This document shows positions 12,901-15,900 of a stretch of 25,268 bases of DNA, in pieces; the stretch's first letter is position 1, and every line of letters starts with the position of its first letter. Made by a program: the position numbers. Origin of the DNA: a virus (lineage: Duplodnaviria > Heunggongvirae > Uroviricota > Caudoviricetes); the IMG/VR virus record IMGVR_UViG_2706794671_000003. One strand, 5' to 3'.

Positions 12901-15900
12901 TACGAACGGCTGCAGACGCCGCTGGAGAAATATACCGCCCGTCAGGAAGAACTGAACAAGGCACTGAAAGACGGAAAAATCCTGCAGGCAGATTACAACA
13001 CGCTGATGGCGGCGGCGAAAAAGGATTATGAAGCGACGCTGAAAAAGCCGAAACAGTCCGGCGTGAAGGTGTATGCGGGCGATCGTCAGGAAGACAGTGC
13101 TCATGCGGCCCTGCTGACGCTTCAGGCAGAACTCCGGACGCTGGAGAAGCATGCCGGAGCGAATGAGAAAATCAGCCAGCAGCGCCGGGATTTGTGGAAG
13201 GCAGAAAGTCAGTTCGCGGTACTGGAGGAGGCGGCACAACGTCGCCAGCTGTCCGCACAGGAGAAATCCCTGCTGGCGCATAAAGACGAGACGCTGGAGT
13301 ACAAACGCCAGCTGGCTGCACTTGGTGACAAGGTTACGTATCAGGAGCACCTGAATGCGCTGGCGCAGCAGGCGGATAAATTCGCACAGCAGCAACGGGC
13401 AAAACGGGCAGCCATTGATGCGAAAAACCGGGGGCTGACTGACCGGCAGGCAGCGCGGGAAGCCACGGAACAGCGCCTGAAGGAACAGTATGGCGATAAT
13501 CCTCTGGCGCTGAATAACGTCATGTCAGAGCAGAAAAAGACCTGGGCGGCTGAAGACCAGCTTCGCGGGAGCTGGATGGCAGGCCTGAAGTCCGGCTGGA
13601 GTGAGTGGGAAGAGAGCGCCACGGACAGTATGTCACAGGTTAAAAGTGCAGCCACGCAGACCTTTGATGGTATTGCACAGAATATGGCGGCGATGCTGAC
13701 CGGCAGTGAACAGAACTGGCGCAGCTTCACCCGCTCCGTGCTGTCCATGATGACAGAAATTCTGCTTAAGCAGGCAATGGTGGGGATTGTCGGGAGTATC
13801 GGCAGCGCCATTGGCGGGGCTGTTGGTGGCGGCGCATCCGCGTCAGGTCACGAAGGAGGCAACCAGCCGGATTGGCGTGGGGAATCTCTACCGGCTGATG
13901 CGCGGCTATGCGGAAGGTGGTTATGTGGGCGGTGCCGGAAGTCCGGCGCAGATGCGGCGGGCTGAAGGCATTAATTTTAATCAGAACAATCACGTGGTGA
14001 TTCAGAACGACGGTACGAATGGTCTGCCAGGTCCACAGATGATGAAGGCCGTGTATGACATGGCCCGCAAGGGTGCCCGTGATGAAATTCAGACACAGAT
14101 GCGTGATGGTGGCCTGTTCTCCGGAGGTGGACGATGAAAACCTTCCGCTGGAAAGTGAAACCCGGTATGGATGTGGCTTCGGCCCCTTCTGTAAGAAAGG
14201 TGCGCTTTGGTGATGGCTATTCCCAGCGAGCGCCTGCCGGGCTGAATGCCAACCTGAAAACGTACAGCGTGACGCTTTCTGTCCCCCGTGAGGAGGCCAT
14301 GGTACTGGAGTCGTTTCTGGAAGAGCACGGGGGCTGGAAAGCCTTTCTGTGGACGCCGCCTTATGAGTGGCGGCAGATAAAGGTGACCTGCGCAAAATGG
14401 TCGTCGCGGGTCAGTATGCTGCGTGTTGAGTTCAGCGCAGAGTTTGAACAGGTGGTGAACTGATGCAGGATATCCGGCAGGAAACACTGAATGAATGCAC
14501 CCGTGCGGAGCAGTCGGCCAGCGTGGTGCTCTGGGAAATCGATCTGACAGAGGTCGGTGGAGAACGTTATTTTTTCTGTAATGAGCAGAACGAAAAAGGT
14601 GAGCCGGTCACCTGGCAGGGGCGACAGTATCAGCCGTATCCCATTCAGGGGAGTGGTTTTGAACTGAATGGCAAAGGCACCAGTACGCGCCCCACGCTGA
14701 TGGTTTCTAACCTGTACGGTATGGTCACCGGGATGGCGGAAGATCTACAGAGTCTGGTCGGCGGAACGGTGGTCCGGCGTAAGGTTTACGCCCGTTTTCT
14801 GGATGCGGTGAACTTCGTCAACGGAAACAGTGACGCCGATCCGGAGCAGGAGGTGATCAGCCGCTGGCGCATTGAGCAGTGCAGCGAACTGAGCGCGGTG
14901 AGTGCCTCTTTTGTACTGTCCACGCCGACGGAAACAGATGGCGCTGTTTTTCCGGGACGTATCATGCTGGCCAACACCTGCACCTGGACCTATCGCGGCG
15001 ATGAGTGCGGTTATCACGGTCCGGCGGTCGCGGATGAATATGACCAGCCAACGTCCGACATCACGAAGGATAAATGCAGCAAATGCCTGAGTGGCTGTAA
15101 GTTTCGCAATAACGTCGGCAACTTTGGCGGCTTCCTTTCCATTAACAAACTTTCGCAGTAAATCCCATGACAGAGACAGAATCAGCGATTCTGGCGCACG
15201 CCCGGCGATGTGCTCCAGCGGAGTCGTGCGGCTTCGTGGTAAGAACGCCGGAGGGGGAAAGATATTTCCCCTGCGTGAATATCTCCGGTGAGCCGGAGGC
15301 GTATTTCCGTATGTCGCCGGAAGACTGGCTGCAGGCAGAGATGCAGGGTGAGATTGTGGCACTGGTCCACAGCCACCCCGGTGGTCTGCCCTGGCTGAGT
15401 GAGGCCGACCGGCGGCTGCAGGTGCAGAGTGATTTGCCGTGGTGGCTGGTCTGCCGGGGGGCGATTCACAAGTTCCGCTGTGTGCCACATCTTACCGGGC
15501 GGCGCTTTGAGCACGGGGTGACGGACTGTTACACGCTGTTCCGGGATGCTTACCATCTGGCGGGGATTGAGATGCCGGATTTTCATCGTGAGGATGACTG
15601 GTGGCGTCACGGTCAGAATCTCTATCTGGATAATCTGGAGGCCACAGGGCTGTATCAGGTGCCGTTGTCAGCGGCGCAGCCGGGCGATGTGCTGCTGTGC
15701 TGTTTTGGTTCATCGGTGCCGAATCATGCCGCCATTTACTGTGGTGACGGCGAGCTGCTGCACCATATTCCTGAACAACTGAGCAAACGAGAGAGGTATA
15801 CCGACAAATGGCAGCGACGCACACACTCCCTCTGGCGTCACCGGGCATGGCACGCATCTGCCTTTACGGGGATTTGCAACGATTTGGCCGCCGCATCGAC

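Follow-up and report, generated by a model that had tools for sequence, protein, structure and literature searches.

In phage lambda, the tape-measure gene H lies between T and M and encodes gpH, a protein of 853 aa (J02459 10542-13103) that carries the TMP_2 and Tape_meas_lam_C domains. Within this protein, gpH* corresponds to approximately residues 1-710 and gpHC to approximately residues 690-853, within which residues 818-849 form a trimeric coiled coil that is seated on the gpI trimer of the tail tip (PMC12617516, PMC10721106). Infectivity of the lactococcal phage TP901-1 depends on the last 60 residues of its tape-measure protein (PMC5099701). The H gene described here has the same position and the same two domains as lambda H and belongs to a prophage remnant of Shigella sonnei, the intact H of which is 95% identical to lambda gpH at the protein level, its glycine-rich hinge and C-terminal sequence being identical or nearly so. 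An earlier reading of the DNA, made without database comparison (the sequence-only reading), had compared H with that of lambda; the closest parent is the S. sonnei prophage. Outside the N-runs, the remnant in Ss046 and 53G equals our sequence at the nucleotide level, including the lom deletion and the IS boundaries; in both of these genomes H is intact (853 aa), and a 113-bp deletion in H is found in our contig only.

The window, as we call the whole stretch of 25,268 nucleotides that was analysed, is contig CWTI01000056.1 in its entirety, from the draft S. sonnei assembly GCA_001255855.1. It covers a lambda-like late region, with Nu1 at one end and the tail-fibre assembly gene at the other, in which the genes, H and lom aside, are of normal length (Table 1). 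Both of its ends lie in insertion sequences (IS3-family at 1-77 on the left and IS1 at 25185-25268 on the right) that flank the element in complete genomes as well. The S. sonnei loci used for comparison were reached through neighbouring proteins and include Ss046 (CP000038.1), 53G (HE616528.1), CP019689.1, LR213458.1, CBDDMI010000001.1 and others; the neighbours of the prophage are an integrase and formate/nitrite-transporter-family and MlaA-family genes. N-runs aside, the window differs from CBDDMI010000001.1 by one SNP and the 113-bp gap, and the rest is identical. The sole substitution, C instead of A at position 677, lies just upstream of the minus-strand DUF1398 gene. A look-up with the DUF1398 protein, aimed at the early region, returned loci unlike the S. 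sonnei prophage.

Table 1. Features of the window that bear on the state of gene H and of the contig.
Feature	Position	Strand	Remarks
N-run of 250	3140..3389	.	In terminase gene A; true length 248
G and T, upstream of H	10858..11696	+	Programmed -1 frameshift heptamer GGGAAAG at 11256-11262
H (tape measure), native codons 1-720	11689..13848	+	Translation equals residues 1-720 of intact S. sonnei H
Deletion junction in H	13847..13850	+	113 bp (positions 3629-3741 of comparison locus L005, H codons 721-758) gone between 13848 and 13849
Out-of-frame read-through of H	13849..13965	+	38 missense codons HEGGNQPDWRGESLPADARLCGRWLCGRCRKSGADAAG, then TGA; from the ORF listing and the alignment to intact H
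Stranded 3' end of H, native codons 759-853 and stop	13850..14137	+	+1 frame; identical to residues 759-853 of intact H
M (distal tail protein), intact	14134..14463	+	Start overlaps the native H stop
N-run of 296	17926-18221	.	In J; true length 251
lom, truncated to 160 aa	20153..20635	+	Separate 83-bp frameshifting deletion between CTGGCG direct repeats; junction 20624-20629
N-run of 267	21887-22153	.	In stf; true length 229
N-run of 250	24690-24939	.	Downstream of tfa; true length 250

The window copy of H is readily recognised as belonging to the lambda-type family, with TMP_2 (PF06791) at aa 54-256 (E = 1.4e-69), Tape_meas_lam_C (PF09718) at aa 627-701 (E = 3.2e-21), upstream of the break, and the G/GT chaperone genes on one side of it and the distal tail gene M on the other. 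According to both the ORF listing and the sequence, its ATG at 11689 overlaps the end of T, as in lambda, and opens frame 1. The native frame runs through ...GGGASASG / IGGAVGGGASASG, the last codon of which, GGT, ends at 13848; the native segment is closed by the glycine-rich stretch GSIGSAIGGAVGGGASASG, and the break follows immediately. The stranded 3' end begins with TKEATSRIGVGNLYRLMRGY, finishes with ...LFSGGGR at 14137 and contains the counterpart of lambda residues 818-849, the gpI-binding helix. On these points the sequence-only reading was accurate, since it had followed H in frame 1 to GGGASASG and in the +1 frame from there to the stop at 14137, and the span of 2449 nt that it gave for 11689..14137 equals 2562 - 113. 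The V that it read as a native residue before TKEATS is the junction codon instead. The product actually encoded is thus 758 aa long (720 native and 38 junk residues, ending at the TGA at 13963-13965), and an exact-protein look-up identified it with CSE96979.1, 'tail length tape measure protein [Shigella sonnei]'. Unlike lambda gpH, the window H lacks codons 721-758 and is frameshifted, so that no one polypeptide has the gpI-binding helix. Because the frame is lost after codon 720 and does not continue to this helix, the last 95 codons lying in the +1 frame, the window H, as recorded, is a pseudogene copy of the lambda-type gpH family and not a functional member of it.

Aligned to lambda J02459 and to a closely related E. 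coli prophage, H has a single clean gap of 113 bp and is otherwise unremarkable, and the same gap appears when the window is aligned to complete S. sonnei genomes. The out-of-frame deletion near the C-terminus that had been proposed from the sequence alone is therefore borne out, with its breakpoint now exact, but not its distance of about 100 aa: in the intact protein the C-terminus is 133 residues beyond the break, and 95 of these remain downstream. Where the parent has GCGTCAGG-T-GGTACAG...TTTGTCT-T-CACGAAGG, the window has GCGTCAGG-T-CACGAAGG, which gives the junction GCGTCAGGT / CACGAAGG (for example in the 31-mer CATCCGCGTCAGGTCACGAAGGAGGCAACCA). Since the two ends of the deletion share only a single T (13848), which leaves an ambiguity of 1 nt, there is no microhomology. 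With the 113 bp put back, the gene encodes the 853-aa H of S. sonnei without any difference, in which the 38 deleted residues are 721-758, with 1-720 native and 759-853 out of frame in the window. The missing segment corresponds to approximately 2555198-2555310 in Ss046 (CP000038.1) and 2645850-2645962 in 53G (HE616528.1). A check for repeats and hairpins found no flanking inverted repeat joining the deletion ends, and no repeat copy of the 113-bp segment in the 36-kb locus. An imperfect 14-nt direct repeat with a spacing of exactly 113 nt does occur, but it lies 53 nt upstream of the junction and cannot yield the observed sequence, and we regard it as a coincidence. We also noted a 317-bp E. 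coli contig at NCBI (P0017) that holds an in-frame H-Lom fusion fragment (...GGAVGGGASASGG / MAYSRVSTFSGDYLRV...) with its H breakpoint one codon from that of the window. This closeness may be chance, or it may point to a tendency of the glycine-rich, GC-rich stretch to break.

The lesion was then looked for elsewhere. When 5,426 complete genomes of E. coli and 50,697 phage records were searched with a junction 40-mer, built so that neither half by itself seeds megablast, nothing matched; these collections do not contain S. sonnei chromosomes as such. The same limit applies to the GTDB species representatives, IMG/VR and JGI metagenomes, in which exact junction 34-mers and 22-mers had no match; as a positive control, the intact left boundary pattern matched 10 IMG/VR contigs. 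A protein search with the junction and the junk-tail peptide gave three matches, none of them with the junction: one was an E. coli PA49 fragment read out of frame, another the H-Lom fusion P0017 described above, and the third a contig apparently running into sequencing-adapter sequence. In a collection of 15 billion proteins, at least 1,000 contigs carry the intact S. sonnei H and a single one the truncated 758-aa form, which is known from NCBI only and has no record in Logan, an independent assembly of public reads. The segment is present in all 22 other S. sonnei-type loci, at exactly 113 bp in 19 of them and within 112-114 bp overall, the off-size ones coming from error-prone assemblies. 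The lesion is consequently no lineage-wide S. sonnei pseudogene (0/22 other loci) but a singleton, private to one S. sonnei isolate or assembly, and no mention of the contig accession was found in the literature.

Broken copies of H are not rare as such, since 9 of the 22 other S. sonnei loci (L006, L010, L011, L014, L018, L025, L027, L030 and L031) have the gene in two or more ORFs. These nine splits are due to single-base indels of either sign that recur at about nt 253-258, 1081-1083, 1580, 1739-1742 and 2205 of H, in assemblies that also have indels in neighbouring genes and none of which has the 113-bp deletion. They are likely sequencing errors rather than real pseudogenes, which means that broken H genes in databases are often artefacts, but of another kind than the 113-bp gap. 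On seven S. sonnei contigs we also observed a second H allele (P0027), N-terminally cut at contig ends, with S213 and A729 where the window has Y213 and V729; it suggests that in some S. sonnei isolates there are two lambdoid copies of H.

The four unresolved N-gaps in a 25-kb scaffold indicate that this stretch assembled badly, and the contig is a scaffolded short-read draft with assembly trouble in the prophage element. The true lengths of the gaps are all about 230-250 bp and their sequence looks unique, and two of the size estimates are exactly 250. Local repeats of the missing segments, N-gaps and H alike, were searched for in the 36-kb locus and none was found. Coverage dropout driven by GC content was considered and set aside, as the N-gaps (0.54, 0.61, 0.63 and 0.30) and the H segment (0.54) show no consistent pattern. 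The lom lesion of the same contig is of a different standing: the 83-bp deletion, between 6-bp repeats, occurs on 861 contigs, including the reference genomes Ss046 and 53G, and is therefore a real, lineage-wide S. sonnei pseudogene. In complete S. sonnei genomes an IS1 also lies between the phage porin gene and the lysis genes of the prophage. Given these IS insertions and the lineage-wide lom frameshift, the prophage counts as degraded throughout S. sonnei already.

Three accounts of the H lesion have to be weighed. The reading that we favour, with a confidence only a little above an even chance, is that H became a pseudogene by a single, recent, isolate-specific deletion of 113 bp that is real and arose by homology-independent end joining. 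Such illegitimate joining would have dropped the 113 bp from H in one isolate, and the loss of codons 721-758 would shift the frame, leaving 720 native and 38 junk residues with the last 95 not made, in a prophage that S. sonnei presumably no longer needs. The element does show independent and real decay, in the lom deletion and in the IS elements inside and flanking it. A further argument comes from the join itself. De Bruijn assembly requires k-1 shared bases at a join, and SSPACE and GapFiller require an overlap of approximately 10-15 nt, failing which Ns remain. The H junction has no N and 1 nt shared, so that, judging from how these tools work, reads spanning it most likely exist. On the other hand, spontaneous deletions in enterobacteria usually arise via short direct repeats, and junctions without homology form a rarer class; the lom deletion is typical in this respect and the H deletion is not, which counts against a real deletion. 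The absence of a Logan record counts weakly against it too.

That the isolate has an intact H, the 113 bp having been lost in assembly, scaffolding or gap closure of the short-read draft, is a serious competitor to which we would give somewhat less than an even chance; the sequence-only reading, too, had raised an assembly error as the alternative. More than 1,000 contigs have this gene and only one has the lesion, the truncated protein is without a Logan copy, the H flanks are 100% identical to the reference, and the sizes of the four N-gaps on the same scaffold are misestimated by up to 45 nt. From features of the submission we infer that GCA_001255855.1 came from the Sanger Velvet/SSPACE/GapFiller pipeline, whose authors warn of false joins from its greedy steps, give 4-10 misassemblies for each genome and include 299 S. 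sonnei assemblies in their dataset (PMC5320598). A variant of this explanation is that the assembler threaded through the junction of a second, deleted H-like remnant in the same genome. Paralogue confusion of this kind is possible since some S. sonnei isolates carry the P0027 allele, which breaks contigs inside H, and since the comparison of S. sonnei chromosomes was confined to the prophage locus, a paralogous junction could lie elsewhere. However, no separate protein cluster with the junction peptide surfaced, and a near-identical H paralogue in most strains is disfavoured because the intact H is routinely assembled in S. sonnei. The 113-bp segment, moreover, has an average GC content and is repeat-free in the 36-kb locus, and the usual overlap or k-mer joining should not, given how these algorithms work, produce a junction of this type.

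It could also be asked whether the two frames are functional, either through a programmed frameshift at the junction or by being made as two polypeptides, one gpH*-like and one gpHC-like. The region in which cleavage into gpH* and gpHC naturally occurs is indeed close to the break, the junction is followed by an AAGGAGG motif, and a real programmed frameshift exists just upstream in G/GT, where the canonical lambda heptamer is conserved at the G/T overlap. G/GT is a genuine two-frame gene of the operon, and H is unlike it: among the five matches to GGGAAAG in the window, that of G/GT comes closest to H and none is at the H junction, which reads GCGTCAGGTCACGAAGG and contains no slippery heptamer. 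The AAGGAGG motif is native coding sequence of all H genes, and the +1-frame remainder, which gene callers skip, has no plausible start codon of suitable spacing. The conserved residues 721-758 are physically absent. Every homologue examined encodes H as a single 853-aa frame with the segment present, and none of the intact ones shows the same junction in frame; the architecture is limited to one contig, which gives no sign of selection for it. A programmed frameshift, restart or split gene is thus effectively refuted by the lack of conservation, and we find it scarcely credible. More generally, it is very unlikely that anything other than a real deletion or an assembly artefact accounts for the lesion.

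If the deletion is real, its consequence for the phage can be predicted from the lambda structures and from tape-measure mutagenesis. The 720 native residues correspond roughly to the mature gpH* portion, and the breakpoint coincides almost exactly, by chance, with the glycine-rich gpH*/gpHC hinge. Without gpHC, whose helix 818-849 sits on gpI, the protein would not be anchored in the tail initiator, and this copy of H should therefore be unable to support tail assembly, giving no tails rather than shorter ones. The loss of tail assembly anticipated by the sequence-only reading, in the event of a real lesion, agrees with the published structures. Katsura's lambda mutants likewise have internal deletions in H, but these were reportedly in frame and kept both termini, and such phages were viable, with shorter tails. 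The window H is out of frame and has lost its C-terminus, for which no tail would be expected. A real deletion would also give a natural gpH*-like protein without gpHC, which might act as a dominant-negative decoy against tail assembly of a superinfecting lambdoid phage, or offer a ready-made way to test whether tail initiation requires a covalently attached gpHC, but we consider this highly improbable.

Whether a deletion or an assembly error, the lesion is ordinary and nothing new in kind. Its practical value is that of a clean test case for auditing a draft assembly, with a 113-bp difference, an exact parent sequence and named reference coordinates. Should it be an artefact, CSE96979.1 (758 aa) and its out-of-frame tail are not to be taken as a natural tape-measure variant. 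Should it be real, it is one more inactivating mutation, in a single isolate, in a remnant that S. sonnei was already losing, and it carries little biological weight. A lesion in H adds little if the prophage cannot make phage, and since the prophage is already degraded in all S. sonnei, the extra cost of this one may be small.
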